This document shows positions 2,221 through 58,620 of a DNA stretch of 64,000 nucleotides, piece by piece. Source of the stretch: Candidatus Aenigmatarchaeota archaeon (lineage in GTDB: Archaea > Aenigmatarchaeota > Aenigmatarchaeia > PWEA01 > JACQIF01). The translations under genes were made by a program, and so were the position numbers. The first letter of the stretch is position 1, and every line of letters begins with the position of its first letter. Below the pieces are notes generated by a model, which saw only the letters and a list, made by a program, of their open reading frames with translations, was not told where the DNA came from and ran no database searches. Where the stretch lies: assembly GCA_016432325.1 (NCBI GenBank), contig CP066684.1, forward strand, positions 256,001-320,000. Direction: 5' to 3'.

Positions 2221-2495
2221 GGGCCGGTAGTCTAGTGGTTGCGCCTTTTGGGCACGTCCGCCCAAAACCCGCGGGAAAATACGCCTGCCGGCAACGCCAC
2301 ATATGACGTCTGCTTGACGGTTTTTGGCGACCAAGTCGCTGAAAATGAAACTGCAGAAGGTCGCTGGTTCGAACAAGGGGCACTGATGCGCGCGCTGCAC
2401 GCGGTTTCGACCGCGGCATGCCGAAACGCGGCGCGTTTCGTGCACCCTTGAACCCCTACGATACGTGGGGTACGGAAATCCGGCCCGGCCCACCA
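2221..2495 (+). tRNA. tRNA-Val(GAC) with three introns: D-loop 2241-2302, anticodon 37/38 2320-2351, T-loop 59/60 2374-2478
   Basis: Removing the three segments gives GGGCCGG-TA-GTCT-AGTGGTTA-TGAC-G-TCTGC-TTGACGT-GCAGA-AGGTC-GCTGG-TTCGAAT-CCGGC-CCGGCCC-A-CCA. BHB central helices: GTGG/CCAC, TTGA/TGAA (one mismatch), TTCG/CGGA. TATA box at about 2188. Confidence 0.92.
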
Positions 2496-2502
2496 TGACA
2501 GC

Positions 2503-3585
2503 TCAGCCGCCTCTGGGCGATGACGCGTACATGCCGCATCTGTCGAAGAAATACTCCCATCTTTCCAGTTCGGCGCGCTCCGCGCTCTCTGACATTGTTG
2601 TTTTCCTGGGGCGCGGCATTAATCTTTCAGCAAATCCGTTCAGTTTTATGGCAAGTTTCTCTCCATGCGTCCAGAACTCCTGATTCATGGGTATGACGTG
2701 GATGGTTCTCGCGTCTTCGGTGAGGCCCTTGGGAACGTCGGAACCATGCACTATGCTGTAGGTGATGTTGCCGCTCTTGTCTTCCCGCTCAACTACGGCC
2801 GGGCCGTCGCCCTTCACGCTCGCCTTGTACTTCCACCTACGGGAAAATCCGGGTTCGTGCGGGCTCGCCGGCGCGATCTTCACCACGCCGTCGTACTGCG
2901 ATGTGACAACCTTGTTCGTGCCTCTGAGCCTTTCGTCGGGGCGCGCGTAGAAGAGCCTTTTGTGCCCATCATCGAATCCATTCTGCGGTTCTATCTTGAC
3001 CAGCGCGCGGCCGCGGATGAGTTCTTTGGAATGACGGGCCACGTACTCGGGAGGAAGCAACGCCTCTGTCGGCTTGACATGATCGTCACGGGCGGCGTGC
3101 ATCGCCCTTGCCTTCTTTTCAAAAGAGCGCTGTGGATGCCGTGAGCGCCTGATTTCTTCCGAAGCTATCAGTCCGGCGCCGGCGTAGATAGAGAGTTCGG
3201 TCGTGGGCTGCACGTAGTCGCCATCGAACGGGTTAAGCACAGCTACCGGATCCATCTGCGGAACGTACAAGGAGAGAAGGTCGTTGAAACTGTTCCATCC
3301 CTTGATGGGATCCAGCTCGCCGGAAGAAAGCGCGTGAGTGGCGTAGGCGCCGACGGCTGCTATGGATATGCCGGCCAGATAGATGTCGTTGCGGGCCAGC
3401 GTGTTCTTCGCCTTCCTGACGTGCCCCTTTGTCGCTTCGACTGTCTTGCCGACGGCCCGTCTGATCAGACTGGAACCCTTTTGGAAAATGGACGCCTTGG
3501 GTTTTGATTTCGCAACCACAAAGAATTCGCCGTTCTCGCCAAAAGCTCTGCTAACCTCGCGTCGTTCACTCAAACTTGCGGCCAT
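2503..3585 (-). CDS. Hypothetical membrane-associated protein
   Basis: 360-aa ORF with hydrophobic segments near residues 68-85 and 133-142; TTG start. Confidence 0.6.
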   Translation of the reverse strand: MAASLSERREVSRAFGENGEFFVVAKSKPKASIFQKGSSLIRRAVGKTVEATKGHVRKAKNTLARNDIYLAGISIAAVGAYATHALSSGELDPIKGWNSFNDLLSLYVPQMDPVAVLNPFDGDYVQPTTELSIYAGAGLIASEEIRRSRHPQRSFEKKARAMHAARDDHVKPTEALLPPEYVARHSKELIRGRALVKIEPQNGFDDGHKRLFYARPDERLRGTNKVVTSQYDGVVKIAPASPHEPGFSRRWKYKASVKGDGPAVVEREDKSGNITYSIVHGSDVPKGLTEDARTIHVIPMNQEFWTHGEKLAIKLNGFAERLMPRPRKTTMSESAERAELERWEYFFDRCGMYASSPRGG

Positions 3586-3685
3586 TCAAACACCTCGGCA
3601 GATGCGCTGACATACGATATTCAAAATCAAATATAATGGAATGTGCGCAACTGTTTCGCCAGGACAAAAAAGTTCACGTGAAGTT

Positions 3686-4423
3686 TTATTCAGCGCCCCC
3701 GACTATTCCAGAAACGATGTCTGCTACGTCCGTCGCTTTGCCGTTCCCTGTCACTTCGTTTTCCGTCGAATGGCCGCTCTCTTTATGCGGGGCCTCCGTC
3801 GGGGCGTCTGGGATCGCCCTCGAGGAAACAGTGCCCTCGATCCTGGATTTCTGTTCAGGTTCCTTCTTTTCTTCGCTGTCTGCCGCCGTTTTCCTACCGG
3901 CCTTCTCAGGCACGTCAGCACGTTCCGAGCCCAGACCGGATTCAACGCCTCTTAGAAAATTCTTCTTGGCGTCGGGGATATCGGTTGAAATGCCGCTTTT
4001 GACGCGCTTGCCGACATTCTCGGCCTCCTCCGAATGTTCTTTCAGACGATCCTCAATGTTTCCCGGCCCTGTCGGCAACGCCTCAGCGACCGATATGGTC
4101 GCCTCCGCCTCCTTCAATAACCGCACGCGTTCAATTTCGGCCAGTTGGAGAGCCTCCATGTTTCCGGCACTGAACGCGGCGTCGACCTCGGCCAAACGCT
4201 CGTTGGCTATATCAAGCGCAATGCCGGCGCGCTCTTCGGGCGTCGATGCAAGACCCAACAATATATTGTCGAAAAGAACGTCAAAGAACCAGAACGGCGA
4301 GTCCGGAGTAACGCCCGCGACTCCGATGTCTTGGGCCAATACGGGGACGGGCAGCAGACCAACAGCCAGCAGCACAGCAACCATTGATCTCCAGTGCGCG
4401 CCGAATGACGTGTTCAGTGTCAT
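3686..4423 (-). CDS. Secreted DUF5667-like helical protein
   Basis: Signal peptide followed by AGVTPDSPFWFFDVLFDNI...ANERLAEV. Confidence 0.75.
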   Translation of the reverse strand: MTLNTSFGAHWRSMVAVLLAVGLLPVPVLAQDIGVAGVTPDSPFWFFDVLFDNILLGLASTPEERAGIALDIANERLAEVDAAFSAGNMEALQLAEIERVRLLKEAEATISVAEALPTGPGNIEDRLKEHSEEAENVGKRVKSGISTDIPDAKKNFLRGVESGLGSERADVPEKAGRKTAADSEEKKEPEQKSRIEGTVSSRAIPDAPTEAPHKESGHSTENEVTGNGKATDVADIVSGIVGGAE

Positions 4424-4429
4424 GCAAAT

Positions 4430-5431
4430 CTACTCCGTCTGGTCTGTTTTGTCTATTTCGTATTTCTCGTGGATATCGAGCACATTAATGCGGCCGCGCG
4501 GTTTCTTGCTGACGACTTCCTTCATCTCAAGACCTCGTATCACCTTTGAAACCTTGGACTTGGAAAACTTTGTTTCTGCGAGCACGTCGGACTGAAGGGC
4601 TCTTCCTTTCTTGCCAATCAGTATCTCAACGATGGCGTTCTCGTCCTGCGTCAGCGTGCTCCTGACGGCGCTGAGCGGGGTCTTGCGCGCCTGTGCAGGA
4701 CCGCCCTTGATGGCAGCGACCTTGCGGATTCTTTGCGCGGGCCGCGGCGTGCGCGTTTTCGGCGTCAGGAACCGCCTGAACCTGTACGCGGCATAGCCGA
4801 AAACAAGCGCCCCTGCGGCGAACAGAGGAGGCAGAAAAAGAGCGTCCGTCTTGTACATGACGAACGTGTTGTAAGCCTCTCCTGCGGCAATGGACGCGTT
4901 CCACACGAGCCTCACGCGTTGGCCGTCCGTTGAGAAGCGCGCGGCAGGTGAAACGAGAGGCACATCATCATCGAATGCCACGATCGCTCCCGGAGGCAGC
5001 TCCAGCGTGAAGTTGTATGAGTCTATCCGCAAAGCGCTCTGGAAAGCGTTGTTGAATACGATGCCGCGAGACGTCATCTCTGCCGGCGAATCTGCTGCAA
5101 AGGCGAGCGTTATTCTATGCGTGCCGCGGGCGACTGTCTTGTTGATGACAATCACATAGTCTTCGTCTTCCATAACCGCATAGACGTCTGCCGGCTTGCC
5201 ATCGATGGTGGCGGAGAGCCCGTCGGCGCGCGGGAAGCCGTGAAGCGTTATGTTGTTCATTGCGCTTTCTGAAACGAACAGCGCCGTGACGGAGTGCAAC
5301 GCCTTGCCGTCGAGGACAATGGTCGAAGAATATTCCTTGAAGTAGTCGGCTTCCACCGCCGCGGGCAGAAGGACAAGCATCGCCACAAGCACGTACACCC
5401 CCCTCATGCTCCAATTATGCACAAGGCGCAT
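4430..5431 (-). CDS. Membrane-anchored winged-HTH regulator (extracellular domain, TM, cytoplasmic HTH; COG2512-like)
   Basis: Signal peptide, beta-rich domain, TM, then LTQDENAIVEIL...QSDVLAETKFSKSKVSKVIRGLEMKEVV...GRIN. Confidence 0.8.
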   Translation of the reverse strand: MRLVHNWSMRGVYVLVAMLVLLPAAVEADYFKEYSSTIVLDGKALHSVTALFVSESAMNNITLHGFPRADGLSATIDGKPADVYAVMEDEDYVIVINKTVARGTHRITLAFAADSPAEMTSRGIVFNNAFQSALRIDSYNFTLELPPGAIVAFDDDVPLVSPAARFSTDGQRVRLVWNASIAAGEAYNTFVMYKTDALFLPPLFAAGALVFGYAAYRFRRFLTPKTRTPRPAQRIRKVAAIKGGPAQARKTPLSAVRSTLTQDENAIVEILIGKKGRALQSDVLAETKFSKSKVSKVIRGLEMKEVVSKKPRGRINVLDIHEKYEIDKTDQTE

Positions 5432-5482
5432 TATATGCTTGCCTAACTAACGGTCGTTCAAAGAAGACGGTTTTTTGACGCA

Positions 5483-5513
5483 GGAAACAGTTTCCAACGT
5501 TCCATTAAATACG
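5483..5513 (+). promoter_or_regulatory. Conserved promoter/operator copy 1 (GGAAAC-N8-ACGTTCCATT-TATA-like)
   Basis: 24/31 identical to 6301-6331; both lie upstream of + strand genes. Confidence 0.55.
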
Positions 5514-5585
5514 TCCCGGCCCGTAACTGACCTCCGCATGAACGGGAGGAAACTAAACGAATGCTATCGTTTTGGAGGTGGGATT

Positions 5586-5741
5586 ATGAAAAGCGAACAG
5601 CGATTGGAGCAGAAAATGGACGCCGGGCCCACGATAGGAACGGCAACGGTCGATGAGATGAGCGCGGCAGTGCTCTATCTGATGGAACTCCACTCGGAAG
5701 AACGCAGAGAAGGCAGGCGATGCTGGCCTGCTTTAGCCTGA
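5586..5741 (+). CDS. Small hypothetical protein
   Basis: ATG preceded by a strong GGAGGTG RBS. Confidence 0.5.
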   Translation: MKSEQRLEQKMDAGPTIGTATVDEMSAAVLYLMELHSEERREGRRCWPALA

Positions 5742-5753
5742 ACAGGGACCGCC

Positions 5754-6002
5754 ATGAAAGGTTCCAGAATCGGCCTTGGAGAGTCGTTCGGCGTCGTTTC
5801 GTTGATCTTTGCCACGAAGGACATACGATTCCCCGTGGAAAAGGAAGAGCTGGTGAGGCGTCTCGCTGTAACAAAACTGTATTGGGACAGAGATACCGTC
5901 ATAGACCTGAAAGAGGTTCTGCGTAGCAGCGATAAGGAGCTTTTCTCCAGTATGTGCGACGTCTTATGCGCGGTGGCCAATCACGAATCCGTGAAGACGT
6001 AA
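5754..6002 (+). CDS. Small hypothetical protein (DUF2795/MTH865-like FPxxKxEL motif)
   Basis: DIRFPVEKEELVRR...FSSMCDV. Confidence 0.55.
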   Translation: MKGSRIGLGESFGVVSLIFATKDIRFPVEKEELVRRLAVTKLYWDRDTVIDLKEVLRSSDKELFSSMCDVLCAVANHESVKT

Positions 6003-6018
6003 AACAGCGACGACCGCT

Positions 6019-6207
6019 TCATATTCTCTTTTTGCCGCGACCGCGCTTGAACCCTCTCAGAAATTCCTCTGCTGTCACGGAAGATGTCTTCTGCGCCGCG
6101 GCGAGCCCTCGCACAGCGGCCTCTTCAGCGAGCGCCACAGAACGCCCTGCAATCTCCCCTGCAAGACGGGACGCCTTCTTCATGGCTACGTCTACCGATC
6201 CGCCCAT
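6019..6207 (-). CDS. Small basic hypothetical protein
   Basis: 62-aa ORF with upstream TATA-like element at about 6241-6247. Confidence 0.45.
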   Translation of the reverse strand: MGGSVDVAMKKASRLAGEIAGRSVALAEEAAVRGLAAAQKTSSVTAEEFLRGFKRGRGKKRI

Positions 6208-6300
6208 ATCAACACCCGACTAAGCTGGAATCCGTGGAGATATAAAACATACGCGCTAACGGACAGATGAAACAGTTCCTGACCGTTTCCAGCTCGAACG

Positions 6301-6331
6301 GGAAACTGTCGTCGACGTTCCATTTTATACG
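6301..6331 (+). promoter_or_regulatory. Conserved promoter/operator copy 2, upstream of the DUF5667-GT2-GH operon
   Basis: GGAAACTGTCGTCGACGTTCCATTTTATACG; matches 5483-5513. Confidence 0.55.
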
Positions 6332-6444
6332 GTTTCTCCTGTCGGTGTGTCAGCTCGCGAGCGCAGGTCCCGGAAGGGCTTCTCCTTCCCACCCCCACAC
6401 GCCGCGAGCGCTAATCCCGAAACTAGGGACTAGGGTGGTCATGG

Positions 6445-7920
6445 ATGTTGAAGACGGCGTTGGTGATTGCGGCTATAGTAATGGTGTCTGCGATGCCTGT
6501 AGCGGCAAGCGCACAGCTCGTCTCTATTACAAGCGACGGGGGAGTCGTGATAGGAGGCTCCGCTGGCGCGGGAACGGATGACGTGAACGTCGGCGCAGAA
6601 ACGGCCGCTACCGCAGAAATGAACGCCGAGGCAAACGCAGAAACGGGTTCGGGCTCTTCCAACGACACCGAACCCAATATAGTAGACACCGGTGGTAATG
6701 CGGTCTCAACGCTGTCGGCCGGCGCCTCTGGAGGCGCGTCGGCGTCTGCATTCGCGTCGACGGCGTCAGGAGCATCCGGTAAAAACGCAGGGGACATGGC
6801 CGCAGGAAGCGCGGAGGATGACAACAGCGCGGGCGCGGGAAGCGCCGGGATTACACCGGACTCCCCTCTGTGGGTCATTGATGTTTTCGTGGATAAGGCA
6901 AGGCTTTTCCTCGCGTCGACCGCAGAAGCCAAGGCAAACGTCGGATTGGACATAGCCTCGGAAAGGCTGGCCGAGATGCAGGAAACGGCCGAAACGCACA
7001 AGATTGAGGCTTTCCAAAAGGCAAGGCTCGAGCACAGTAACACCATATTAGAGATTCAGAAAGAAGTCAGCGTACTCGATTCCCAAGACACCGCAGTTCT
7101 GATATCCCTTCAGGAGAAGGCAGACGCCCATGCCGAGGCCGCCGCTGACATAAACGACGATTTACACTCCAAGATGACAGGCGAAGGCGCTGAGGCCGTG
7201 TTGGAAGCGTTCTCAGAGAGCGTATCCGAGGCCGCCGCTGACATAAAACTGAATCTCAACAAGATAGCAGAGAAACGCACGAATGAAAGCGTAGAGCAGG
7301 CAAGGAACAGCCTGGAAGAAGCGCGAACGGCGGCTTCGGTTTGCGCCGATGCGTCAACCATTACGGACGCGATTGCAAACGCGGAGCCGCCCGAATTACC
7401 CGACCCAGCCGTAGGCATATGGTCTGCGACGCACGCCAGCGCCTGTGCCAGCATAGGAGAGAACGTTGGCAAGGCCGAGGAACAGATGAAAGACGCAGAG
7501 AGCGCCCTCGACGAAAAGATGTTCGGAGAGGCTTTCGGTCAGGCGACGGCTGCGATAAAGACGTGTAATGAAATACAAGCGCAAGCAGAGGCAGTGGCCA
7601 CAGAAAAGGCTACGGAAAAGATGGAGGCCGCGAAGGAGGCCATCAAGGAGGCCAGAACAGTTACTCAACTGTGCGCCACGGCAGATGTGTGGAAGAACAT
7701 GCATCTGAACGCTGAGCCTCCGCGATTGCCTGACCCATCGGTAGATGTTGAAGCGATGTCGTGGAACGGGGCATGCGTTAGCGCCGACACGAACGCTAAG
7801 AGAGCCGAGGTGCACATGATGGCCGCCCAGTCCGCCTTCCTTAAGGGGGACATGGGCGAAGCACTCGGTCAGGCGTCCGCGGCACTGGAAGCAGCCAATG
7901 ATGCGAAAGGTGCAGGGTGA
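6445..7920 (+). CDS. Large secreted DUF5667-like protein with duplicated C-terminal Cys-containing repeat
   Basis: Signal peptide, Ala/Gly linker, AGITPDSPLWVIDVFVDK; NAEPPxLPDP...FGQA/LGQA unit present twice. Confidence 0.75.
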   Translation: MLKTALVIAAIVMVSAMPVAASAQLVSITSDGGVVIGGSAGAGTDDVNVGAETAATAEMNAEANAETGSGSSNDTEPNIVDTGGNAVSTLSAGASGGASASAFASTASGASGKNAGDMAAGSAEDDNSAGAGSAGITPDSPLWVIDVFVDKARLFLASTAEAKANVGLDIASERLAEMQETAETHKIEAFQKARLEHSNTILEIQKEVSVLDSQDTAVLISLQEKADAHAEAAADINDDLHSKMTGEGAEAVLEAFSESVSEAAADIKLNLNKIAEKRTNESVEQARNSLEEARTAASVCADASTITDAIANAEPPELPDPAVGIWSATHASACASIGENVGKAEEQMKDAESALDEKMFGEAFGQATAAIKTCNEIQAQAEAVATEKATEKMEAAKEAIKEARTVTQLCATADVWKNMHLNAEPPRLPDPSVDVEAMSWNGACVSADTNAKRAEVHMMAAQSAFLKGDMGEALGQASAALEAANDAKGAG

Positions 7921-7926
7921 GATGTT

Positions 7927-8112
7927 ATGGTGCAAGGATTGAGAAAAATAGGGGAGAACGACAAAACGATCGTGTATCGCGGGGTCGATTACCTCGGACA
8001 CGCCGTGCAGTACATCATACTGCGTTCGGCATTTCCAAGAGGCCCGCCGCACACGCTCGATCCGTGGCTGGCAGAAGAACTATCAGAGACTTTGGCCTCG
8101 GATAAAAGGTGA
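7927..8112 (+). CDS. Small hypothetical protein
   Basis: Fills the operon gap; GGTGA RBS. Confidence 0.5.
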   Translation: MVQGLRKIGENDKTIVYRGVDYLGHAVQYIILRSAFPRGPPHTLDPWLAEELSETLASDKR

Positions 8113-8132
8113 AATGATGGTTGGTGGGGTTT

Positions 8133-8729
8133 ATGGAAACGAGGTCCGTGGCGCTCATAGTCTTGCTCAGTGTCGCAGCCGTGCTCATGATAATCTCGAC
8201 CGGCAGCCCGCTGCCGATAGACGGCGTGCCTGACTTCTCCGCCGACGTCAATACGGTAAAATCCGTTCCCAGCGCCATAGGCGAAGGCGGAGCGCTCCTG
8301 CTCCTGACGGGCGGACTCCTCGTCCTGCTCATCATGCTGCCGATAACGCTTCTCAAATCAATACACACAGAGGCGCAACACGAACCCGTGAAAAACGGCG
8401 GGGCGTCCAACGGCTCAAACGGCTCCAACGGGTCCGGCAAGTACGACCTTGGTTACAAGGTGGGAGCTTCCGTAAGCAGCCAGAACATAGACGACATAGT
8501 GGACAGCCTGGAGCAGCTGCAGGACACGGAAGTGAGCATAACCAATACTACCGGAAAGCTGAAACGCATCCACGTGAAAAAATGCAAGACGTGCAGGAAT
8601 CCAGTCTGCGATTTCGAGAGGGGCTTCTTCGCCGGCGCGTTCGGCCAGTTCTATGACAACGTCAGCGTCAAAGAGACGAAATGCCGCGCGACAGGCGCGG
8701 GTTACTGCGAATTTGAGGTGAAGGGGTGA
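8133..8729 (+). CDS. Membrane protein with C-terminal V4R-like domain
   Basis: Two TM segments, then CKTC...PVCDFERGFFAGAF...VKETKCRATGAGYCEFEV. Confidence 0.8.
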   Translation: METRSVALIVLLSVAAVLMIISTGSPLPIDGVPDFSADVNTVKSVPSAIGEGGALLLLTGGLLVLLIMLPITLLKSIHTEAQHEPVKNGGASNGSNGSNGSGKYDLGYKVGASVSSQNIDDIVDSLEQLQDTEVSITNTTGKLKRIHVKKCKTCRNPVCDFERGFFAGAFGQFYDNVSVKETKCRATGAGYCEFEVKG

Positions 8730-8735
8730 CCGTCC

Positions 8736-36772: not shown

Positions 36773-36983
36773 TGGCGCTGAGGGGGAGATTCTCGTGAAC
36801 CCGTCGTAGGGGTTCAAGGGGCGCACGCATGTGCCACTTGTTTGAACTCCCGCGGGCTTGCGCCCACCGGTTTTCGAGACCGGCGCAGTTGGTCCGCCTT
36901 CTGCCCGCAGGCGTATTTTTTCCCGCGGGTTTTTGCGCGGATATTGCGCAAAAAGGCGCTAAACCAAGCTTTGCTACCTCAGC
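36773..36983 (-). tRNA. tRNA-Ser(CGA) with two introns: D-arm 21/22 at 36889-36959 and T-loop 59/60 at 36790-36840
   Basis: Spliced: GCTGAGG-TA-GCAA-AGCTTGGTTTA-CTGC-G-CCGGT-CTCGAAA-ACCGG-long variable arm TGGGCGCAAGCCCGC-GGGAG-TTCAAAT-CTCCC-CCTCAGC-G-CCA. D-arm BHB GGTT/GACC flanked by CGCC/GGCG. Confidence 0.93.
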
Positions 36984-45261: not shown

Positions 45262-45417
45262 ACCAAGGATAGCGGCGCCCGCTATATAAAACTGCCGTCG
45301 TAAGCCTCTTATGCGCTTTTTAAAGCTATCCGCACAGGTTTATTGCGGCGATGATTGAACCGCTCCAGAGCGAGCCTCCCCTACGGTAAAGTGGAGGGGC
45401 TGTGAGCATCAAGGTAA

Positions 45418-45493
45418 CTCATGAGCCGCTATTCCATCATATGAAGCTCAACGCTACCCGCTTCGAAGTTTTTGTGTAGCTCATGAGCCGCTA
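45418..45493. repeat. Two copies of CTCATGAGCCGCTA (45418-45431, 45480-45493)
   Basis: Exact 14-bp direct repeat with a palindromic core, 62 bp apart, intergenic. Confidence 0.7.
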
Positions 45494-45546
45494 AATCTTT
45501 TTGCGCCAAAGACGCAGGTAAACGCGCAAAAACATTTATGAAAAAT
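45493..45546. repeat. Stand-alone copy of the tRNA-intron hairpin module
   Basis: AAAT-C-TTTTTGCGC-loop-GCGCAAAAA-C-ATTT-ATGAAAAAT, same layout as 58478-58523. Confidence 0.7.
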
Positions 45547-45567
45547 CTACTGCCGCCATTTGACTCT

Positions 45568-45898: not shown

Positions 45899-45982
45899 TC
45901 AGCGCTTGCGTCCGCGAGACGCCTTGCGCCTGCCGCCCTTTTTCACTGCCTTCTTCCTCGATCTTTTCACTTTTCTCGCCAT
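45899..45982 (-). CDS. 27-aa highly basic microprotein MARKVKRSRKKAVKKGGRRKASRGRKR
   Basis: GAGGTG RBS, T-rich terminator after the stop, 16/27 Lys+Arg; below the ORF-track cutoff. Confidence 0.65.
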   Translation of the reverse strand: MARKVKRSRKKAVKKGGRRKASRGRKR

Positions 45983-46093
45983 TTTTGCACCTCTTTTTTG
46001 AAGCCGCGACGTACGCGAACGACCGAAGCTTCTTGTAATTATTTGAAACCGCAGAATATAACTGTTTTACGGGCGAATTTTCTCCGGATTGTC

Positions 46094-46615: not shown

Positions 46616-46646
46616 AGTAACGGTTAAGAGGCACAATAGTATAAAT

Positions 46647-47261: not shown

Positions 47262-47319
47262 AGTAATCACTTTACCATGGTGACAATTCGTATTTAAAGC
47301 TTTCTGTGCCTCCAGAAGC

Positions 47320-48208: not shown

Positions 48209-48209
48209 G

Positions 48210-48833: not shown

Positions 48834-48991
48834 AGATATCGTTCCGTGTTTTAGTGTGTTGAACGTAGGTCGTATAAATATGCATTCGCGTGCGCGGCAC
48901 GTATCCGTAAGATCCGTATACAACTGTTTATGCTATCTATATATTCGGGCTTGTCCAAACTTGATAAGGGCACGGCTTGGTTAAAATTTCC

Positions 48992-49900: not shown

Positions 49901-49984
49901 ATTACTGCAATATAAAGATTTGTTCGGCGAACGCAAGACAAACGCATATAAAGATGCCGCGCGTTCTAACGTCGGGTGTGCTGA

Positions 49985-50635: not shown

Positions 50636-50879
50636 GCCCGCAGGCGACGGTCTGAAAGACCGCATCCTCGCCGCCATCTTTCTCGCAGGGGAAGCGGGCG
50701 TGCCCTTGGAGAAGATAGCGACCGTCCTGCAGGCCGATCTTGAAGAAGAGGGCGTCGCCGAGACGCTGGAAACGGTCCTCGTGGAGATGTCCAACGACGG
50801 TCTGGTTTCCGCGGACGGGCAAGACAGCTACTTCATCGAAGACAAGGGCTTCAGGAGAATCGAGAAATTCCCGGACTGA
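50592..50879 (+). CDS. Small wHTH-like protein
   Basis: RILAAIF...LEKIATVL...EMSNDGLV...YFIEDKG. Confidence 0.55.
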   Translation: MPKTPSKKLSRKSSKPAGDGLKDRILAAIFLAGEAGVPLEKIATVLQADLEEEGVAETLETVLVEMSNDGLVSADGQDSYFIEDKGFRRIEKFPD

Positions 50880-50931
50880 TGTTCTGCGCAATAGATAACT
50901 TTATATATCGACCGAACTCCTTTCTGTCCAG

Positions 50932-50979
50932 ACACAACAGGTTGTGGTTGCGCACGTTCGCGAACACAACAGGTTGTGT
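50932..50979 (+). promoter_or_regulatory. Tandem NrdR boxes (50932-50947, 50964-50979)
   Basis: ACACAACAGGTTGTGG and ACACAACAGGTTGTGT, 32 bp start-to-start, between TATA (about 50900) and nrdR. Confidence 0.85.
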
Positions 50980-50998
50980 TCTAAGAAAGTAGTAACAG

Positions 50999-51454
50999 GT
51001 GCCCGGTCTGAACTGTCCTTATTGCGCCCACACGGAAACGCGTGTCGTAGACAAACGCGAATCCGAGGACGAATCGACGCGCCGCAGGCGCGAATGCACG
51101 TCGTGCGTCAAGCGTTTCACCACGTACGAGCGCGTGGAGTCGCTTGACATGACGGTGGTAAAGCGGAACGGCGCCAAGGAACCCTTTATGAGGGAGAAGA
51201 TTCTGATGGGCATGAAAAGGGCGTGCGAGAAGAGGCCTATAACGGACGCCGAAATCGAAGAAGCAGTCGACTCCGTGGAACGCGTGCTCCGCAGGCGCAA
51301 ATCCACAGAGGTCAAGAGCACGGACATCGGGGACCTTGTGCTGAGAAAGCTCAAAGCGCTCGACGAAGTCGCATACATAAGGTTCGCGTCCGTATACCAG
51401 TCATTCGAAAGCGCCAAGGCCTTCGCAAAAGAAGTGGCGGCGCTGAAAATATAA
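50999..51454 (+). CDS. nrdR: Transcriptional repressor NrdR
   Basis: CPYC...TRVVDKR...RRRRECTSCVKRFTTYE, ATP cone, VAYIRFASVY; true start possibly CTG at 51008. Confidence 0.96.
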   Translation: MPGLNCPYCAHTETRVVDKRESEDESTRRRRECTSCVKRFTTYERVESLDMTVVKRNGAKEPFMREKILMGMKRACEKRPITDAEIEEAVDSVERVLRRRKSTEVKSTDIGDLVLRKLKALDEVAYIRFASVYQSFESAKAFAKEVAALKI

Positions 51455-51460
51455 GGGGGG

Positions 51461-54400
51461 ATGTTCATGAAAGCACAGGCGGCGCAGGCCGTGAAAAGCG
51501 CCGAGAAGGCGGGGAGCGGTTTGCGAATCGACAGGCGTTACACTCAACAGGGCGCGAGCGTTTTTGACCAGATCGAATGGACCACGCGCTCGTCCATCAT
51601 AGCAGAACCGGACGGCACCGTCGTCTTCAAATTCGACAAGGTTGAGGTCCCTGCGGCCTGGTCCCAGCTCGCGACAGACATTCTCGCCTCGAAATATCTC
51701 AAGCGCGCGCAAGTGAAAACCCAGGATGGCACCGTAGGCTCGGAAACCAGCGCGCGGCAGGTCGTCTCGCGAATAGCGACCACGTTCCGCTGGTTCGGTG
51801 AGAAGTACGGCTATTTCGCGTCCGCAGACGACGCGCAGGCGTTCGAGGACGAACTGACGTATCTGCTCATAACACAGCGCGCGGCCTTCAACAGCCCTGT
51901 CTGGTTCAACGTCGGCCACTGGCACTATCACAACATAAACCAGGACGGCGACAACTGGGCATGGGACATGGAGAACGGTCGCGTCTATCAGGAGAACAAC
52001 TACTACGCCCGCCCGCAAGGAGCGGCGTGCTTCATCCAGAGATGCGAGGACTGGATAAACGGACCCATGGGTATAATGGACCTCGTGGACAAGGAAGCGC
52101 GTCTCTTCAAGGGCGGCTCCGGCACAGGCACGAACTTCTCGCGCGTACGCGGCAGAGACGAACCGCTGTCGGGAGGGGGCGTTTCGAGCGGACTGATGAG
52201 CTTCCTTAAGATTCTCGACACCAACGCAGGCAGCATCAAGTCAGGAGGAACCACGCGCCGCGCGGCCAAGATGGTCATCCTCGACGCGGACCACCCTGAC
52301 ATAGAGGAGTTCGTCGGGTGGAAAGCGCACGAGGAAAAGAAGGCCAAGCTGCTGTTGCAGGCCGGGATCGGCCTCGATTCTATGGGCCGCCCGGACTTCA
52401 ACGGCGAGGCGTATACTACCGTTTCCGGCCAGAACTCCAACAATTCCGTGCGCGTTACAGACGAATTCATGAACGCCATTCGCGAAGACAAGGAGTGGAA
52501 TCTCATCGCGCGCAGGAGCAAGAAGACATGGAAGACCGTTCGTGCGAAGGAACTCTGGAACAAGATTTCCCGATGCGCATGGGAGTGCGCGGACCCCGGA
52601 GTGCAATACGACGATACGATACAGAGATGGCACACCTGCAAGAACACGGACAAGATATACGCGACAAACCCGTGCTCGGAGTTTGTGTTCCTTGACGAAA
52701 CGTCATGCAATCTCGCGTCCGTGAACCTTCTGAAGTTTTTCGACGATACGAAATTCGACGTGGACGCGTACAGGTACGCGTGCCGCGTGATGTTCATCGC
52801 GCAGGAGATAGGCGTCGACCTCTTCTCCTACCCGAGCCGCACGATTGCGGAGACCACGCACAAGACGCGGCCGCTCGGTCTCGGTTACGCGAATCTCGGA
52901 ACGCTTTTGATGTGCATGGGCCTGCCGTACGACAGCGCAGAAGGCCGCGCTATGGCAGGCGCGCTGACCGCGCTCATGACAGGAGAGGCCTATCTTACGT
53001 CCGTTGAGATGGCCCGCGTCAAAGGCCCTTTCGCACTGTACGAGGAGAACAGGGAGCCGATGCTCGGCGTAATGAGAATGCACCGCGACTCAACGTACGA
53101 GCTCTTCCGCACAGGAAGCCCGATACCCGAAAAGATGGCCGGCGCGATGCCGGAGAAATGGTTCGAGGATATAGCAAAGACCGCTGTGGAAGTCTGGGAC
53201 GATGTCGTCGAGGAAGGGAGCAAGCACGGCTTCAGGAACGCGCAGGCGACGGTCCTCGCGCCCACAGGAACGATAGCGCTGCTGATGGACTGCGACACCA
53301 CAGGCGTCGAACCGGACTTTAGCCTCGTCAAGTGGAAGAAGCTCGCTGGCGGAGGATATTTCCGCATCATCAACCAGTCTGTTCCACGCGCGCTGCGCAA
53401 CCTCGGCTATACGAACGAACAGGTCAAGGTGATAGAAGAGCACGTGCTGGGCAAGAGGACGGCCGACGGGACCGTGCTCGAACTGGGCAAGGAGACGATA
53501 GAAGGCGCTCCGCACGTACGCACGGAACACTACGCGGTCTTCGACTGCGCCAACAGGTGCGGCGACGGCGTCCGCTTCATAGCCCCTGAAGGCCACATAC
53601 ATATGATGGCCGCGTCACAGCCTTTCCTCTCGGGCGCGATATCGAAGACCGTGAATCTCCCTTCTGACGTTACGGTGGAAGACGTGGCACGCACGTACGA
53701 ACTGGGATGGAACCTCGGCCTCAAGGCCATAGCGCTCTACCGCGACGGCTGTAAAGCATCGCAACCGCTCAACGCCAAGGCCGCCATAAAGGCCGAAGCG
53801 AAGGAAGAGGGGCCTACGTGGGGAGAGATGGTACGCCTCCCAAAGTTCACGGACAACATCATCAAGCGCGAAGTCGCCGTGATGGACCCGAAGCTCGGCA
53901 GAATAAAGATGCACATAATCTTCTGCGAGGACGACCGCGGAAGGCCCATGGAAGTTTTCATGGCTGTCGGCCGCAACGCCTCGTCGGTCAACGAGTTCTG
54001 CCGCGACCTTGGAATCGCATGGTCCAAGCAGCTGCAGCTCGGCCGCCCTGCCAAGGATCTTGCCCTTGACATGGTTGGAGAGGTTGGGGCAATCGCAGGC
54101 ATGACAGACCACCCGCTCTTCAAGACGTGCATGTCTGTGAAGGACCTCGTCGGCAAGATGACCCTCTACGAGTACTACGGAAAGACCGATTTCATAAATC
54201 CCGAAGTTCTGGAGACGTACCAGAAGTCGCTGAACTATGTCAAGCCCCGCTGGCAGGTCCTTGAGGAACTGCACCACCTGCGTTCGCTGCGGGAAGCGCG
54301 AAAGGAAAAGCCGCTGACCGCGTTCACAACGCCTGCGGCGGCAAAGGACAGCGTGGACCCGCACGAAATAGCGAAGAAGTTCATGGCTGACGCGCCTGAC

Positions 54401-54484
54401 TGCGACGTCTGCGGCTTCAAGACCGTGCGCAACGCCGCGTGCTTCAAGTGCCTTAACTGCGGGAACAGCATGGGATGTTCGTGA
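51461..54484 (+). CDS. nrdJ: Class II (AdoCbl) ribonucleotide reductase, long form with TSCPD-like and Zn-finger C-terminus
   Basis: FNSPVWFN, AACFI, TNPCSE, CNLASVN, APTGTI, AISKTVN, YRDG. Confidence 0.95.
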   Translation: MFMKAQAAQAVKSAEKAGSGLRIDRRYTQQGASVFDQIEWTTRSSIIAEPDGTVVFKFDKVEVPAAWSQLATDILASKYLKRAQVKTQDGTVGSETSARQVVSRIATTFRWFGEKYGYFASADDAQAFEDELTYLLITQRAAFNSPVWFNVGHWHYHNINQDGDNWAWDMENGRVYQENNYYARPQGAACFIQRCEDWINGPMGIMDLVDKEARLFKGGSGTGTNFSRVRGRDEPLSGGGVSSGLMSFLKILDTNAGSIKSGGTTRRAAKMVILDADHPDIEEFVGWKAHEEKKAKLLLQAGIGLDSMGRPDFNGEAYTTVSGQNSNNSVRVTDEFMNAIREDKEWNLIARRSKKTWKTVRAKELWNKISRCAWECADPGVQYDDTIQRWHTCKNTDKIYATNPCSEFVFLDETSCNLASVNLLKFFDDTKFDVDAYRYACRVMFIAQEIGVDLFSYPSRTIAETTHKTRPLGLGYANLGTLLMCMGLPYDSAEGRAMAGALTALMTGEAYLTSVEMARVKGPFALYEENREPMLGVMRMHRDSTYELFRTGSPIPEKMAGAMPEKWFEDIAKTAVEVWDDVVEEGSKHGFRNAQATVLAPTGTIALLMDCDTTGVEPDFSLVKWKKLAGGGYFRIINQSVPRALRNLGYTNEQVKVIEEHVLGKRTADGTVLELGKETIEGAPHVRTEHYAVFDCANRCGDGVRFIAPEGHIHMMAASQPFLSGAISKTVNLPSDVTVEDVARTYELGWNLGLKAIALYRDGCKASQPLNAKAAIKAEAKEEGPTWGEMVRLPKFTDNIIKREVAVMDPKLGRIKMHIIFCEDDRGRPMEVFMAVGRNASSVNEFCRDLGIAWSKQLQLGRPAKDLALDMVGEVGAIAGMTDHPLFKTCMSVKDLVGKMTLYEYYGKTDFINPEVLETYQKSLNYVKPRWQVLEELHHLRSLREARKEKPLTAFTTPAAAKDSVDPHEIAKKFMADAPDCDVCGFKTVRNAACFKCLNCGNSMGCS

Positions 54485-54521
54485 ACTCAATCCTTTTATT
54501 TCGGCTGAACGAACTATATCC

Positions 54522-56333
54522 ATGCTCCTAGACCGCCCGCCAAAGACGAAGCTCGCGTTAACGGACAACGCGAAGCGCGTGCTCCAGAAGCGCTACCTGA
54601 GGAAGGACGTCCGCGGGCGCGTCGTCGAGACGCCGGCGCAGATGTTATGGCGCGTCGCGCGCAAAATCGCCTCTGTGAACGCGCGTTACGGAGACCGCTC
54701 AACAGAACGCGAAGCCAGGGAATTTTACGGTATCATGGCGCGCCTCGAATTCCTGCCCAACTCGCCGACGCTCATGAACGCGGGCACGCCTTTGCAGCAG
54801 CTGTCCGCGTGTTTCGTACTGCCTGTCGAAGACTCGCTGGACGGCATCTACGACGCGCTCAAATTGCAGGCGCTGATACAACAGACAGGCGGAGGCACAG
54901 GATTCTCGTTCTCGCATCTGCGACCCGAGGGGGACGTAGTCAGGGAGACGGGCGGAGTCGCGTCAGGACCCGTGTCATTCGCACGCGTGTTCGACTGCAG
55001 CACGGACGCGATAAAGCAGGGCGGCCGCAGGCGCGGCGCCAACATGGGCATCCTGCGTTACGACCACCCGGACATCGTGAAGTTCGTCGACGCGAAGCTC
55101 GCCGAAGGCGCGCTGAAAAACTTCAACGTCTCGGTGAGCGTCACGGACGACTTCATGCGGCGCGCGGAGCACGGCCAGAGCTTCAAGCTCATCAACCCCC
55201 GCACGCGCAAATCGGAAGGCGTCCTGAACGCGGAAAGGCTGCTCGACAGGATATGCGAGAACGCGTGGAAGAGCGCCGAACCCGGAATGGTATTCGTCGA
55301 TCGTATCGAGCGTGACAATCCTACCCCGAAGATAGGCCGCCTCGAGGCGACCAATCCGTGCGCCGAACAGCCTCTGTTACCATACGAGGCGTGCAATCTG
55401 GGCTCCATAAACCTGACTAAGTGCGTGCGCGGGTCTCTTGGGCGGGCGCGCATCGATTGGAAGAAGCTTGCGTATCTCGTGGACACGGGGGTGCGCTTCC
55501 TTGACAACGTAGTTGACGCGTCTGTCTTCCCAGACCGCCGCATAACGGCTGTCGTGCGCGGCAACAGGAAGATAGGCCTCGGCGTCATGGGTTTCGCTGA
55601 TGCGCTCGTGTTGATGGGAATGCCTTACGACTCCAAGGAGGCGCTGGAGACCGCAGAACGCATCATGAAGTTCGTAGACGAACATGCGAAGGAAACCTCT
55701 ATCCGAATAGCCGAAGCGCGCGGCCCCTTCCCCAACTTCAGCAGGAGCATCTATGCGAAGGGAGATCCGATACGCAACGCGACGCGAACGACGATAGCGC
55801 CAACGGGAACGATAAGCATGCTCGCGGACTGCTCATCGGGCATCGAACCGCTGTACTCCGTGTACTATACGAAGAACGTACTGGAAGGCGAGCACCTCTC
55901 CGAAATCAACCCGTATCTTGTCCTGCTGGCAAAGAAGCGCGGGTTCTATTCCGTGAAGTTCGTCGGAAGCCTTCGCGGCCGCCACACCATACGCGACATG
56001 AAAGGGGTTCCGGAGGACGTGCGCCGGCTGTTCGTAACGGCTCACGACGTGACGCCAGAACGGCACGTCCGCATGCAGGCCGCGTTCCAAAAACACACGG
56101 ACAACGCGGTGTCAAAGACGATAAACCTTCCTGCAGACTCGAGCGCCCGGGATGTCAAAAATGCGTACGTTCTTGCGTGGCGATTGGGCTGCAAGGGCAT
56201 AACGGTTTACCGCGAAGGCACACGATTGGGCCAGGTCATAACAGCAGGAGGCGTCTGCGAGGAGTGCGGCGGGACGTACGCAACTATTGAAGGTGCCTTT
56301 GTCTGCAAGACATGCGGAGACTCGGGAGAATGA
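54522..56333 (+). CDS. nrdJ: Second class II ribonucleotide reductase, compact form
   Basis: PNSPTLMNAG, LSACFV, TNPCAEQ, CNLGSIN, APTGTIS, AVSKTIN; C-terminal CxxC-CxxC. Confidence 0.95.
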   Translation: MLLDRPPKTKLALTDNAKRVLQKRYLRKDVRGRVVETPAQMLWRVARKIASVNARYGDRSTEREAREFYGIMARLEFLPNSPTLMNAGTPLQQLSACFVLPVEDSLDGIYDALKLQALIQQTGGGTGFSFSHLRPEGDVVRETGGVASGPVSFARVFDCSTDAIKQGGRRRGANMGILRYDHPDIVKFVDAKLAEGALKNFNVSVSVTDDFMRRAEHGQSFKLINPRTRKSEGVLNAERLLDRICENAWKSAEPGMVFVDRIERDNPTPKIGRLEATNPCAEQPLLPYEACNLGSINLTKCVRGSLGRARIDWKKLAYLVDTGVRFLDNVVDASVFPDRRITAVVRGNRKIGLGVMGFADALVLMGMPYDSKEALETAERIMKFVDEHAKETSIRIAEARGPFPNFSRSIYAKGDPIRNATRTTIAPTGTISMLADCSSGIEPLYSVYYTKNVLEGEHLSEINPYLVLLAKKRGFYSVKFVGSLRGRHTIRDMKGVPEDVRRLFVTAHDVTPERHVRMQAAFQKHTDNAVSKTINLPADSSARDVKNAYVLAWRLGCKGITVYREGTRLGQVITAGGVCEECGGTYATIEGAFVCKTCGDSGE

Positions 56334-56866
56334 AGTACTACACGGGCGCAGGCGACAAGGGCAAGACGACCATTACTGGCAAGACCGGAGTGGCCAAGGA
56401 CTCGCCGCGCGTGGAGGCCTACGGAAATCTGGACGAGCTTGAAGCGATTCTTGGAATAGCGATATCGCATGCCGATGGGCACAAAGACGTAGTTTCCATT
56501 CTCAAGAAGATGCAGAACCTGCTGCACGTCGCCTCGGCCGAGCTGGCCGATCCGAAAGGCAAGCGCGGCATGCGCATCGCAAAGGAACATCTGAAGTGGC
56601 TCGAAGATGTGTGCGACTCCTACGGCGCGAAGACGCGGCCTCTTTCCACGTTCGTACTGCTCGGCGGCTCGCCGGCTGGAGCGCGGCTGCACTTCGCGCG
56701 CACGGTCGCACGGCGCGCTGAGCGTTCGCTCGTCGCGTTGTGGAGGAAGGAACGCGTGTCAAAAGAGATGCTCGCGTTCATCAACCGCCTGTCTTCGGCG
56801 CTGTTCGTGCTGGCCCGTTACGTGAACGAACGCGATGGCTACAAGGAAGAGAGCCCCTCATACTGA
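56330..56866 (+). CDS. PduO-type cob(I)alamin adenosyltransferase
   Basis: YTGAGDKGKT, AYGNLDEL, ARTVARRAER, INRLSSALF. Confidence 0.93.
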   Translation: MKYYTGAGDKGKTTITGKTGVAKDSPRVEAYGNLDELEAILGIAISHADGHKDVVSILKKMQNLLHVASAELADPKGKRGMRIAKEHLKWLEDVCDSYGAKTRPLSTFVLLGGSPAGARLHFARTVARRAERSLVALWRKERVSKEMLAFINRLSSALFVLARYVNERDGYKEESPSY

Positions 56867-56908
56867 CTCTTATATACGCGCGCACGCAAGTCGACCCGAG
56901 GACACGAC

Positions 56909-57115
56909 ATGCACGTTTCTGTCGACAGCGGGCTCTGCATAGGATGCGATCTGTGCGCACGCCTCTGTCCACTCACGTTTTCCATGGACGGCAAGAAGGC
57001 CGAGGTGCGCGACCCTCTGGGCCACGCCCGCGAGGACGTTTCAAAGGTTGCGGACAAGTGTCCTACGGGCGCGATACGCGTTTCTCACGCTGAGTGGACG
57101 AAGCATCTCCGTTAG
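56909..57115 (+). CDS. Ferredoxin
   Basis: CIGCDLC..LCP...CPTGAI. Confidence 0.88.
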   Translation: MHVSVDSGLCIGCDLCARLCPLTFSMDGKKAEVRDPLGHAREDVSKVADKCPTGAIRVSHAEWTKHLR

Positions 57116-57576
57116 CTTTTGTACACGTTTGCTCTTGAAGGATTTCTCGTCTTCTCCTTCGCGGTCTGTGCGCCAAAGAGTCTTCCGAAGTCCTGTATGA
57201 ACTTCGGCGACATATCCAGCGGCCCCTCCAGTCTTGAGCCGTGTATCATTATCTCGTGGTTTCTGTCGCCTGTCGCGTCGCGGATGATGTAGTCTGTCAG
57301 TGGATAAGGGCTGTCAAGAACCGTCCAACCGTAAGCGGTCGCGAGTTTCTTCAGACCGTCTTCACGCTCCTGCGTCCACGACCTGTCGCTAGGATCGGTT
57401 GCCATGTACGCAATAAGCTGCATCCCCTTGGCTCCTGGCGCGCGTCTGGCTTCTATGCGAAAGTCTCCGTCCGCTCCGACCTTTTTCACCTCGCTCTCTA
57501 TGACTGGAGCCGACTTGTTCTCTATTGAAGAAAGCCTGTCGACGAGTTCCTTCGCCTTGCGCACTGTGGCTGCCAT
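57112..57576 (-). CDS. Hypothetical protein
   Basis: AGGAGG RBS; 154 aa. Confidence 0.6.
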   Translation of the reverse strand: MAATVRKAKELVDRLSSIENKSAPVIESEVKKVGADGDFRIEARRAPGAKGMQLIAYMATDPSDRSWTQEREDGLKKLATAYGWTVLDSPYPLTDYIIRDATGDRNHEIMIHGSRLEGPLDMSPKFIQDFGRLFGAQTAKEKTRNPSRANVYKS

Positions 57577-57639
57577 GGAACGTCCTCCTGCTCGTATCTG
57601 ATATTCGCAGTGATATAAGTCTTGCTCAGACGCCGAACC

Positions 57640-58299
57640 TTAAATACGTTTCGAATAACCCTCCTTGTAGTACTTGCATATCTTGCTTAGTGGACATATG
57701 GAACACTTGGGGCCCACGGGTCTGCATAAATCGCGGCCGAACTTGATGAGATCTGTATTGATTAAATGCCATTTAGATTTGGGAATGTTGTTTTCCAAGA
57801 CGCGCTTCACGTCCTCGACGCTCGCCTCTTCGTCAATCAGCCCGATCCTCTTGGGCACGCGATTGCAGTGCGTATCGATTGCTATCGATGGTATTCCGTG
57901 GCCGTACATCAGAACAATGTCCGCGCACTTGGGGCCGATGCCGTAAAGAGTCATGAGTTCATGGCGCGTACGCGGCACGCGCCCGCCGAACTCTTCCATA
58001 ATCTGCCTGCAAGTCTCGTGAATCTTCTTCGCCTTTTGCTTGTACGGGCCCGAGACGCGGATAAGCCGTTCGAGTCGTGCGCGCGGCAGCGCCAGAATCT
58101 CCTGTGGCGTCGACGCAACGGCGACAAGGGCCGAAAAGGCTCTCTCGGTCTGCTCGTCGCGGGTGCGCTGGGACAGGATGCATGAGATGATTACGGAGAA
58201 CGGGTCCTCTTTATTGGCGGCTAGGTTCTGGACGTCCCCGTAGCGGCGGACGAGAAAGTCTACCATAATATCGGTTTTCTCTCGAACTGACAGCCCCAT
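57640..58299 (-). CDS. nth: Endonuclease III
   Basis: ILSQRT, LYGIGPKCA, IDTH, C-x6-C-x2-C-x5-C cluster motif. Confidence 0.95.
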   Translation of the reverse strand: MGLSVREKTDIMVDFLVRRYGDVQNLAANKEDPFSVIISCILSQRTRDEQTERAFSALVAVASTPQEILALPRARLERLIRVSGPYKQKAKKIHETCRQIMEEFGGRVPRTRHELMTLYGIGPKCADIVLMYGHGIPSIAIDTHCNRVPKRIGLIDEEASVEDVKRVLENNIPKSKWHLINTDLIKFGRDLCRPVGPKCSICPLSKICKYYKEGYSKRI

Positions 58300-58348
58300 G
58301 GGCCACTTTTAGCCCTTTTAATATATTACGACGACCATTCACGGCAAC

Positions 58349-58620
58349 GGGCTTGTAACTCAGCTTGGTAGTCTCCCAAAGCGAAAGGGAGGCCATCAGT
58401 ATCGGGCTTTTAACGGCGTTAAAAGCGCTGAGGTCTCGAAGACCGATGAATGGAGGAAACCCGAGAGTCGTGGGTTCGAAACTTTTTGCGCACGTCCGCG
58501 CAAAAACTTTCATGAAAAGTACGCTGCCGCCGGTGCGCGTGCGCGGATTTTTCAGGCGGGTTTTTGCGCGTCGAGCGGATGTGATTGGCGCAAAAAGCTG
58601 CAATCCCACCAGGCCCGCCA
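58349..58620 (+). tRNA. tRNA-Lys(TTT) with three introns: D-arm 22/23 58372-58397, anticodon 37/38 58413-58458, T-loop about 58479-58601
   Basis: Spliced: GGGCTTG-TA-ACTC-AGCTTGGTA-GAGT-A-TCGGG-CTTTTAA-CCCGA-GAGTC-GTGGG-TTCGAAT-CCCAC-CAGGCCC-G-CCA. BHB helices TGGT/GCCA, CTTT/GAGG, GGTT/AGCT; T-loop junction uncertain by 1-2 nt. Confidence 0.92.

Follow-up and report, generated by a model that had tools for sequence, protein, structure and literature searches.

A recurrent hairpin module with a mirrored purine tail in tRNA introns and at gene ends of an Aenigmatarchaeota archaeon, and its possible spread as a small insertion element

Module-built introns and a further copy in the window

The window analysed here, a stretch of 64,000 nucleotides (contig CP066684.1, positions 256,001 to 320,000), belongs to an Aenigmatarchaeota archaeon, a tiny groundwater organism whose 875-kb genome is 90% complete and has a flat GC skew. 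Its tRNA-Val, tRNA-Ser and tRNA-Lys genes carry several introns each (Table 1). The tRNAs are normal once the introns are removed and agree with uninterrupted relatives; the multi-intron genes were spliced by hand and with a custom alignment, and ARAGORN and Rfam gave no matches to the window or to the module described below. The host encodes a single-unit EndA, a second EndA subunit was not found in its genome, and an RtcB-like ORF is recognised by its motif.

One intron of each gene is built from a structured module, here called M. A previous sequence-only reading had placed five copies of M in the window, in Val, Ser, Lys (two) and at 45493, and all five are present there. In the Val D-loop intron and the Ser D-arm intron M starts at intron base 1. 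The Val copy belongs to the GCGC subfamily, with its third tract at 2275-2279 and its tail mini-hairpin reaching to about 2292, and in Ser the N4 segment and the intron 3' end form the BHB intron stem. The T-loop intron of Lys is, as had been claimed, an inverted pair of M, and both copies supply its 10-bp intron stem beside a weak central helix.

The fifth copy had been taken to stand alone outside tRNA genes. It is indeed a non-tRNA copy, because tried as a tRNA intron it scores 12 bits in a spliced alignment, which is the level of non-tRNA controls; a BHB at this copy is not above background. However, it is not simply free because it starts on the final base of a 14-nt stretch that duplicates the 3' terminus of a probable C/D-box-like sRNA. 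The D' guide of this probable sRNA forms 10 Watson-Crick pairs with the 16S rRNA of the same genome. The sRNA had no Rfam match, and a pattern built for it, which also missed its own copy, was not found in the same-genus genome G001 or in 25 relatives; the sole match among relatives was discarded, lying inside a coding region.

Table 1. Coordinates of the tRNA genes, the copies of M and the adjoining features in the window
Feature	Position	Strand	Remarks
tRNA-Val(GAC) gene	2221..2495	+	three introns
Val(GAC) D-loop BHB intron	2241..2302	+	strict BHB, central helix 4/4
tRNA-Ser(CGA) gene	36775..36983	-	D-arm and T-loop introns
Ser(CGA) D-arm intron	36889..36959	-	relaxed BHB, helix 4/4, 8-bp intron stem
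Putative TATA-like box before the probable sRNA	45317..45325	+
Probable C/D-box-like sRNA	45345..45431	+	5-bp terminal stem, C/D'/C'/D-like boxes
14-nt direct repeat	45418..45493	+	45418-45431 and 45480-45493, 48-nt spacer; sRNA 3' end duplicated
Non-tRNA copy of M	45493..45557	+	flush with duplicated sRNA end
tRNA-Lys(UUU) gene	58349..58621	+	three introns
Lys(UUU) T-loop (59/60) intron	58481..58603	+	inverted doublet of M; central helix 2/4
Forward copy of M in Lys	58478..58531	+	N4 takes in exon bases G57-A59
Inverted copy of M in Lys	58536..58601	-	N4 at H' place, 3' splice site

Anatomy of the module and the strand that may fold

M begins with N4 and a C.C mismatch, after which come a pyrimidine/purine stem of 4-5 bp and a G/C stem whose loop varies. 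A linker of 6 nt then leads to a G-led purine tract, and a mini-hairpin forms the tail. M is an imperfect palindrome, which also forms doublets and arrays, and it contains a T-run that could terminate transcription. The C.C mismatch had been described as conserved, which holds for M in general, but the GCGC subfamily carries two of them instead of one. N4 and the bases upstream of M vary, and N4 covaries with N4'. The compensatory stem changes reported before extend to two-sided changes at 10 of 13 stem pairs, with 94.8% of the cells pairing and none of 500 shuffles equalling this, in a set of copies that had been selected as hairpins. The purine tract is the mirror of the 3' arm in 58 of 60 copies from pattern-neutral loci, and both states of this mirror rule are found within six subfamilies. 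In a strand-neutral set, the coupling of the triads in the order pyrimidine, purine, mirror-purine is kept in 129 of 144 copies. The mirrored purine tail is, at the level of the sequence, a triplex signature.

The mismatches of M are A.C rather than G.T at a ratio of 41:13 (27:9 once kin are collapsed), a spectrum that suggests folding of the non-RNA strand. The tail loop has the form GNNA on the strand opposite the RNA only (58 versus 0 of 121), and DNA folding is better on this strand for four of the five window copies. Selection for the fold of M appears to act on this opposite strand, where M would form a pyrimidine-motif triplex (T.A-T, C+.G-C) together with GNA/GNNA-capped hairpins. The mirror tail, the fold on the opposite strand and the sRNA next to the 45493 copy had all been overlooked in the sequence-only reading.

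The class II triplex repeats BoxC, PIT and TMECO are multicopy like M, have the same 5' pyrimidine-purine-mirror purine order, and their complementary strand could likewise form a pyrimidine-motif triplex, and RNA is stated to form no purine-motif triplexes (PMC4666352). However, M has just 4-5 A/T-rich triads in place of the 9-nt G/C-rich consensus, has a long hairpin as first loop, adds the C.C mismatch, the outer stem and the tail, and lives in introns. Its triad number and its first loop fall outside the ITxF rule (stem of 6-15 triads, loops of 1-6 nt), and it does not fit the TMECO consensus. PIT elements act as a block to DNA polymerase in vitro (PMC4666352), and it could be imagined that M spreads with no dedicated enzyme, the triplex or hairpin stalling replication and template switching or repair copying M elsewhere. 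Nearby duplications and nested inserts around M copies would fit such a process, as would the failure to find a transposase, but why several phyla keep a linker fixed at 6 nt, the C.C mismatch and the flush end would be left unaccounted for, and we regard it as very improbable.

Distribution of the module and traces of its movement

With a profile HMM and structural patterns, about 31 copies of M were found in the host genome compared to none in 20 shuffles, so that the genome-wide excess over shuffled sequence anticipated by the sequence-only reading exists. In the 875 kb there are 8 matches to the strict pattern and 14 to the medium pattern, and neither occurs in any of 20 order-5 Markov shuffles. 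Among the host copies, 22 sense copies and one inverted copy are in tRNA introns and eight are elsewhere, and 30 are separate elements outside the doublet arrangement. A looser pattern is present in 145 of 371 Aenigmatarchaeota genomes, and M is also found in other DPANN phyla and in rRNA introns. Copies are concentrated in tRNA, 5S, 16S and 23S genes. A tail-only pattern gave mostly chance matches across the class, viral contigs gave chance matches only, and phages none. The TTTTT/AAAAA repeats of the bacterial Chloroflexi and Methylomirabilota were not counted because a G-C pair replaces the C.C mismatch and their linker is variable.

Most copies of M lie where a tRNA or rRNA intron begins, and some are flush with gene ends. 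The C.C base is at most 10 nt from the 5' splice site in 107 of 117 placed sense copies, sense and inverted copies number 118 and 11 (n=129), and more than 90% of the intron copies are sense, counts that include non-independent kin and many loci retrieved by tRNA-rich patterns. Copies in tRNA genes outnumber intergenic ones about 3:1, although the non-coding DNA (~70 kb) is several-fold larger than the tRNA genes. The non-intron copies adjoin RNA or ORF ends as well, BHBs at non-tRNA copies are not above the 43% background that makes the free BHB search non-discriminating, some copies are in-frame in pilin leaders, and some are interrupted by a second element. Host selection might keep M as a structural signal, for 3'-end protection, termination or as a splicing aid, that is spread by gene conversion alone and is not selfish. 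This would suit the location flush behind stop codons and RNA ends, the sense bias, the T-run, and the additional use of N4 as BHB intron stem. However, it is the antisense strand that favours the fold, M is patchy between congeners, and neither the disruption by the second element nor the copies in pilin leaders would be expected of such a signal, which makes this explanation quite improbable.

That M has moved is indicated by identical stretches of 33-41 nt shared between non-homologous sites of different isotypes, for example the Ser T-loop and the Val, Ala, and Met D-loops, or the Trp anticodon and the Arg D-loop. The gap between eIF5A and DedA comprises 3 nt in G001 and ~170 nt in the host, Ser(GGA) has an M intron in G001 and none in the host, an HTH gene is followed by an empty site in two other families, and the Lys T-loop site is empty in most relatives of the same order. 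Doublets are found in the host and in relatives. Direct repeats of 10-15 nt flank some copies; among the eight non-intron copies of the host, two have repeats of 13-15 nt (2 mismatches), a third a weak one, and five none. No RNA run was among the sequencing runs listed. Among the matches listed from four DNA runs of one study, possibly the source, no joint was present at the 45493 or Lys copies, in contigs that drop rare variants. Since inverted copies, doublets, further non-tRNA copies and empty orthologous sites exist, the outcome that the sequence-only reading had named as speaking against a mobile element did not occur.

Insertion as DNA or by way of RNA

A search of the 90%-complete host genome for Y1 transposase, TnpB, and reverse transcriptase genes found none; for reverse transcriptase there was no family match. 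Y1 genes are not more common in M-rich (6/26) than in M-poor genomes (6/24), and none was located beside M in the genomes compared. Longer copies flanking a transposase or nuclease gene, for which a search had been suggested, were not found, nor was a linked TnpA-REP flanked by M copies. REP, REPIN, and BIME sequences resemble M as short imperfect palindromes with a conserved mismatch that form inverted doublets and tandem arrays and are located directly behind stop codons (PMC8266576, PMC6006769). However, M has neither the GTAG tetranucleotide nor a REPtron, it has a third strand, and the TnpA-REP subclasses are reported to be non-archaeal (PMC8266576, PMC6006769). The PATEs and SMRs of Haloquadratum are archaeal and transposase-free like M, have near-terminal palindromes, and are also entered in the palindrome by a second small element (PMC3119063). 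For M, in contrast, no IS605 parent was found, the sequences upstream vary in DPANN instead of presenting the fixed 4-5-nt target of IS605 type, and direct repeats, never made by PATEs, flank some copies; M did not match the listed PATE palindromes (Table S9 of PMC3119063). MITEs and Rickettsia palindromic elements are small, non-coding, multicopy and found in-frame in proteins, as is M (PMC10969869), but unlike MITEs single M copies have no terminal inverted repeats (inverted ends are confined to doublets) and no constant target duplication, and no partner transposon was found among the Y1, TnpB, and reverse transcriptase families. Thus, M is not supported as a formal MITE, REP, or PIT element. 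What stands of the proposed small non-autonomous DNA element is the dispersed, mobile-type pattern, which is not due to chance; its assignment to MITEs or REPs and a linked transposase do not.

We lean towards M being a non-autonomous insertion element that acts at the DNA level as single-stranded DNA and persists in tRNA genes in the form of EndA introns. M would be the conserved end of this element. Its N4 end, which is observed to abut stop codons, the 3' ends of RNAs, or the junctions with exons, would mark where it is inserted, at times leaving 10-15-nt direct repeats; against this, target duplications are lacking at most non-tRNA copies. Copies in tRNA and rRNA genes would be kept where N4, or else a second copy in inverted orientation, makes up a complete BHB, and host EndA and RtcB would then remove the intron. 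Further spread between tRNA genes may use short common exon sequences, which would account for much of the tRNA excess. As a mobiliser we can only guess at a nuclease or ligase acting in trans on folded single-stranded DNA. Tolerance through splicing, as formerly proposed, cannot be a full explanation because of the excess in tRNA genes and of sense copies, and the strong tRNA/rRNA and sense bias is unlike a random DNA inserter.

An alternative in line with the sense bias is a route through RNA and cDNA, in which introns, once excised or circularised, would be joined into further RNAs (through reverse splicing by EndA/RtcB, or through RNA ligation) and then copied to DNA, with M folding in the cDNA for priming or recombination and inverted and non-tRNA copies arising as rare by-products. 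Intron transposition is documented for the Thermoproteales (Fujishima et al. 2010, summarised in PMC4033280), whose introns are, like those built from M, of EndA type, at non-canonical positions and similar in sequence between isotypes. The position next to the 5' splice site, the concentration in tRNA and rRNA genes and the non-intron copies at RNA or ORF ends are in line with such a route. The inverted and non-tRNA copies previously held against an RNA route exist, but the argument is weaker than stated because an intron cDNA would correspond precisely to the strand that seems to fold. However, M is a single module, conserved and structured, located at the end of the intron, with inverted copies, doublets, copies outside spliced RNAs, and an antisense-favoured fold, all of which set it apart from the Thermoproteales introns. 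The direct repeats and doublets better suit DNA insertion, and the missing reverse transcriptase match, the background level of BHBs at non-tRNA copies and haloarchaeal look-alikes with no association with introns also weigh against this route. We consider it unlikely but viable, because no enzyme was found, the formal MITE, REP, and PIT comparisons fail, and the bias exceeds what tolerance would give.

The origin of the intron DNA in archaeal tRNA genes is an open question. An Asgard preprint of 2026 put copying, mobile elements, and reverse transcription to the test without finding a general intron-entry route (10.64898/2026.10.13.758758). M offers a testable route for intron gain, since one recognisable family builds many introns at many positions in several DPANN phyla, with empty and filled sites in close relatives. 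More tentatively, and with considerable doubt, M might be the end by which an undescribed class of mobile elements is recognised (triplex-folding single-stranded DNA or cDNA, inserted flush at RNA and gene ends), a class that is a main source of new DPANN tRNA and rRNA introns and includes the haloarchaeal stop-codon repeats. A literature search for a haloarchaeal or DPANN description of an M-type repeat found none; there is reportedly a paper on inverted repeats of halobacteria. If the haloarchaeal look-alike is M, its mobility, strand, and mechanism could be tested in cultured, genetically tractable hosts. There it is located behind stop codons, starting at most 4 nt from the stop in 11 of 19 scorable copies.

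Distribution of the repeat within the genome

The window comprises bases 256001-320000 of a single-contig genome of 875 kb, whose DNA was obtained from groundwater. The sequence-only reading had placed five copies of M in it, and their positions were all borne out. M is a short repeat consisting of four outer-stem bases (N4, pairing with N4'), a C.C mismatch, a stem-loop, a 6-nt linker, a purine third tract and a tail mini-hairpin. Genome-wide, a strict pattern for M matches 8 times and a medium pattern 14 times, and neither matched in 20 shuffled genomes. Profile searches and reading of the contexts raise the number to about 31 copies: 19 clear and three degenerate sense copies inside tRNA introns, a single inverted copy in a tRNA intron (Lys), and eight copies elsewhere. 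Because non-coding DNA, which a rough gene call puts at about 70 kb, far exceeds the tRNA genes, the latter are strongly over-represented among the sites. Three of the eight other copies begin at a stop codon, one lies behind a tRNA 3' end, one within a 5' leader, two in pilin leaders, and one is the window copy at 45493. Both pilin-leader copies, including the inverted one, are in frame, and a 15-nt repeat flanks one of them. In 30 copies, two-sided changes are found at 10 of the 13 hairpin pairs, outer N4 stem included.

ARAGORN and Rfam detected no tRNA within the window because its tRNA genes carry two or three introns each. The intron stem in Lys(UUU) is formed by the intron's own two M copies. 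EndA, which cuts bulge-helix-bulge (BHB) motifs and would be expected to splice out the M introns, is a single unit with its closest matches among Aenigmatarchaeota proteins, and no second subunit was found in the genome. Single-unit EndA enzymes with a C-terminal insert have been associated with disrupted tRNAs in DPANN archaea (PMC5829648). Nearly all tRNAs of this genome have non-canonical, relaxed introns despite the single-unit enzyme. The T-loop introns of Val (window 2450 (+)) and Ser (window 36815 (-)) have another conserved segment in common, unrelated to M. In the anticodon intron of Lys(UUU), and likewise in Lys(UUU) introns of relatives from the same order, a guide with complementarity to the tRNA's own anticodon loop precedes first a D box and then a C-like box. 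By the fifth-base rule this guide would direct 2'-O-methylation of U34, comparable to the guide in the tRNA-Trp intron.

Features of the window and of the host genome (C1, this genome's contig; L076, a fetched locus)
Feature	Position	Strand	Remarks
Val(GAC) intron with M	window 2241-2302		strict BHB
Ser(CGA) intron with M	window 36889-36959		central helix 4/4, intron stem 8 bp
Lys(UUU) intron with two M copies	window 58481-58603		central helix 2/4, intron stem 10 bp
Lys(UUU) anticodon intron guide segment	window 58418-58453	+
Probable C/D-box sRNA, unannotated	window 45345-45431	+	guide to 16S rRNA
M copies in pilin leaders	C1 420411-420470, 546680-546800		opposite orientations
EndA, single-unit	L076 1474-2079	-	basic insert near C-terminal motif

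Polymorphism and spread

M is a genuine, widespread and polymorphic repeat family. The syntenic gap between eIF5A and DedA measures about 170 nt here versus 3 nt in the congener G001, which in turn has an M intron in Ser(GGA) that is absent here. An HTH gene and its neighbour overlap in two other families, whereas an M copy separates them in this genome. Most relatives have an uninterrupted Lys T-loop, and a Val D-loop copy is polymorphic within one genus. Identical M stretches of 33-41 nt occur in different isotypes at unrelated positions, and 13-15-nt repeats flank two of the non-intron copies. These data suggest mobility at the DNA level, with conversion as a putative means of spread.

Among 371 genomes of Aenigmatarchaeota, 145 matched a looser pattern, clearly more than matched a reversed-pattern control, although some of these matches are due to chance. 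When all GTDB genomes were searched with strict variants, 36 of 40 and 28 of 28 matches fell in DPANN archaea, including Micrarchaeota, Iainarchaeota, Altiarchaeota and one bin labelled Parvarchaeota. In the fetched loci, tRNA introns carry M at many positions, in 118 cases sense and in 11 inverted. The sense copies are located at the 5' splice site, and in several inverted copies the N4 end lies at the 3' splice site. The family thus shows both orientations and a general rule that N4 is flush with a host boundary. Inverted doublets like that of the Lys intron were found again in other genomes, and M was also seen in 5S, 16S and 23S genes and as tandem arrays. A multicopy repeat in Halobacteriales shares with M its core, the C.C mismatch, a linker of 6 nt and an N4 that covaries, begins at most 4 nt from a stop codon in 11 of 19 scorable copies, and is likely homologous to M. 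Multicopy repeats of comparable layout (a hairpin between T5 and A5, with a purine tail behind it) occur in Chloroflexi and Methylomirabilota (L002, L004, L011, L024, L034, L035) but have a G-C pair in place of C.C and a linker that varies.

The folded strand and the nature of the element

A T-A pair beside the C.C mismatch goes with A in the tail and a C-G pair with G. Pattern-neutral searches gave 60 copies, 58 of which obey this rule, and six N4 subfamilies include both states. The covariation suggests a triplex. M is laid out like the class II intrastrand triplex repeats, although it does not conform to the consensus and the formal rules on size that define them (PMC4666352). Stem mismatches, counted after a Watson-Crick-only filter, are A.C in 41 and G.T in 13 cases (27:9 once kin are collapsed), and A.C is a G.T wobble when read on the other strand. 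The tail loop is GNNA on the opposite strand only (58 versus 0). Three discordant triads retain a C.G-T triple on the opposite strand only, while one other case is opposite in direction. RNA is reported to form no purine-motif triplexes (PMC4666352). Therefore, the conserved fold is most likely that of the template or cDNA strand rather than of the pre-tRNA.

A route through cDNA would accommodate the folded strand as well as a DNA element does, but we consider it rather improbable. The non-autonomous DNA element proposed from sequence is, by a little better than an even chance, the best reading of M; the accompanying idea that it is tolerated in tRNA genes because it is spliced does not on its own explain the bias towards tRNA genes and sense orientation. 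In its behaviour M resembles a REP or PATE whose end is of the PIT type, yet it belongs to none of these by formal tests. Neither a Y1 transposase nor TnpB nor RT was found in this genome; M copy number is not tracked by the presence of Y1, and none of the Y1 loci has M adjacent.

The copy at 45493 and accompanying elements

The 45493 copy starts on the base with which a 14-nt repeat ends; this repeat is the duplicated end of an 87-nt segment that itself lies downstream of a TATA-like box. Besides a terminal stem and C/D-like boxes, this segment contains a guide that matches the genome's own 16S rRNA by 10 Watson-Crick pairs. Because such a match has an estimated chance of a few percent, and neither an Rfam match nor a homologue was found, we grade the segment as a probable C/D-box sRNA. 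If it is real, the copy, which is inverted relative to both flanking protein genes, would obey the common rule, being sense with N4 flush with the host boundary. The segment also has a weaker 23S match, and an inserted hairpin separates D' from C'.

At four or five sites a second element is inserted within M. This small multi-hairpin element lies in A-runs of the third tract or 3' arm (C1 211306, 743574, 830615, 652782 and about 546720), resembling the targeting of PATE palindromes by SMRs (PMC3119063). A related but distinct family of short hairpins (C1 636913 and 643706 (-), 103728, 522087, 830067) flanks the rRNA genes and is also intergenic. In the rRNA operon (C1 635000-648500), which contains a tRNA-Ala(UGC) with three introns, the spacing of the rRNA motifs suggests insertions in the rRNA genes.
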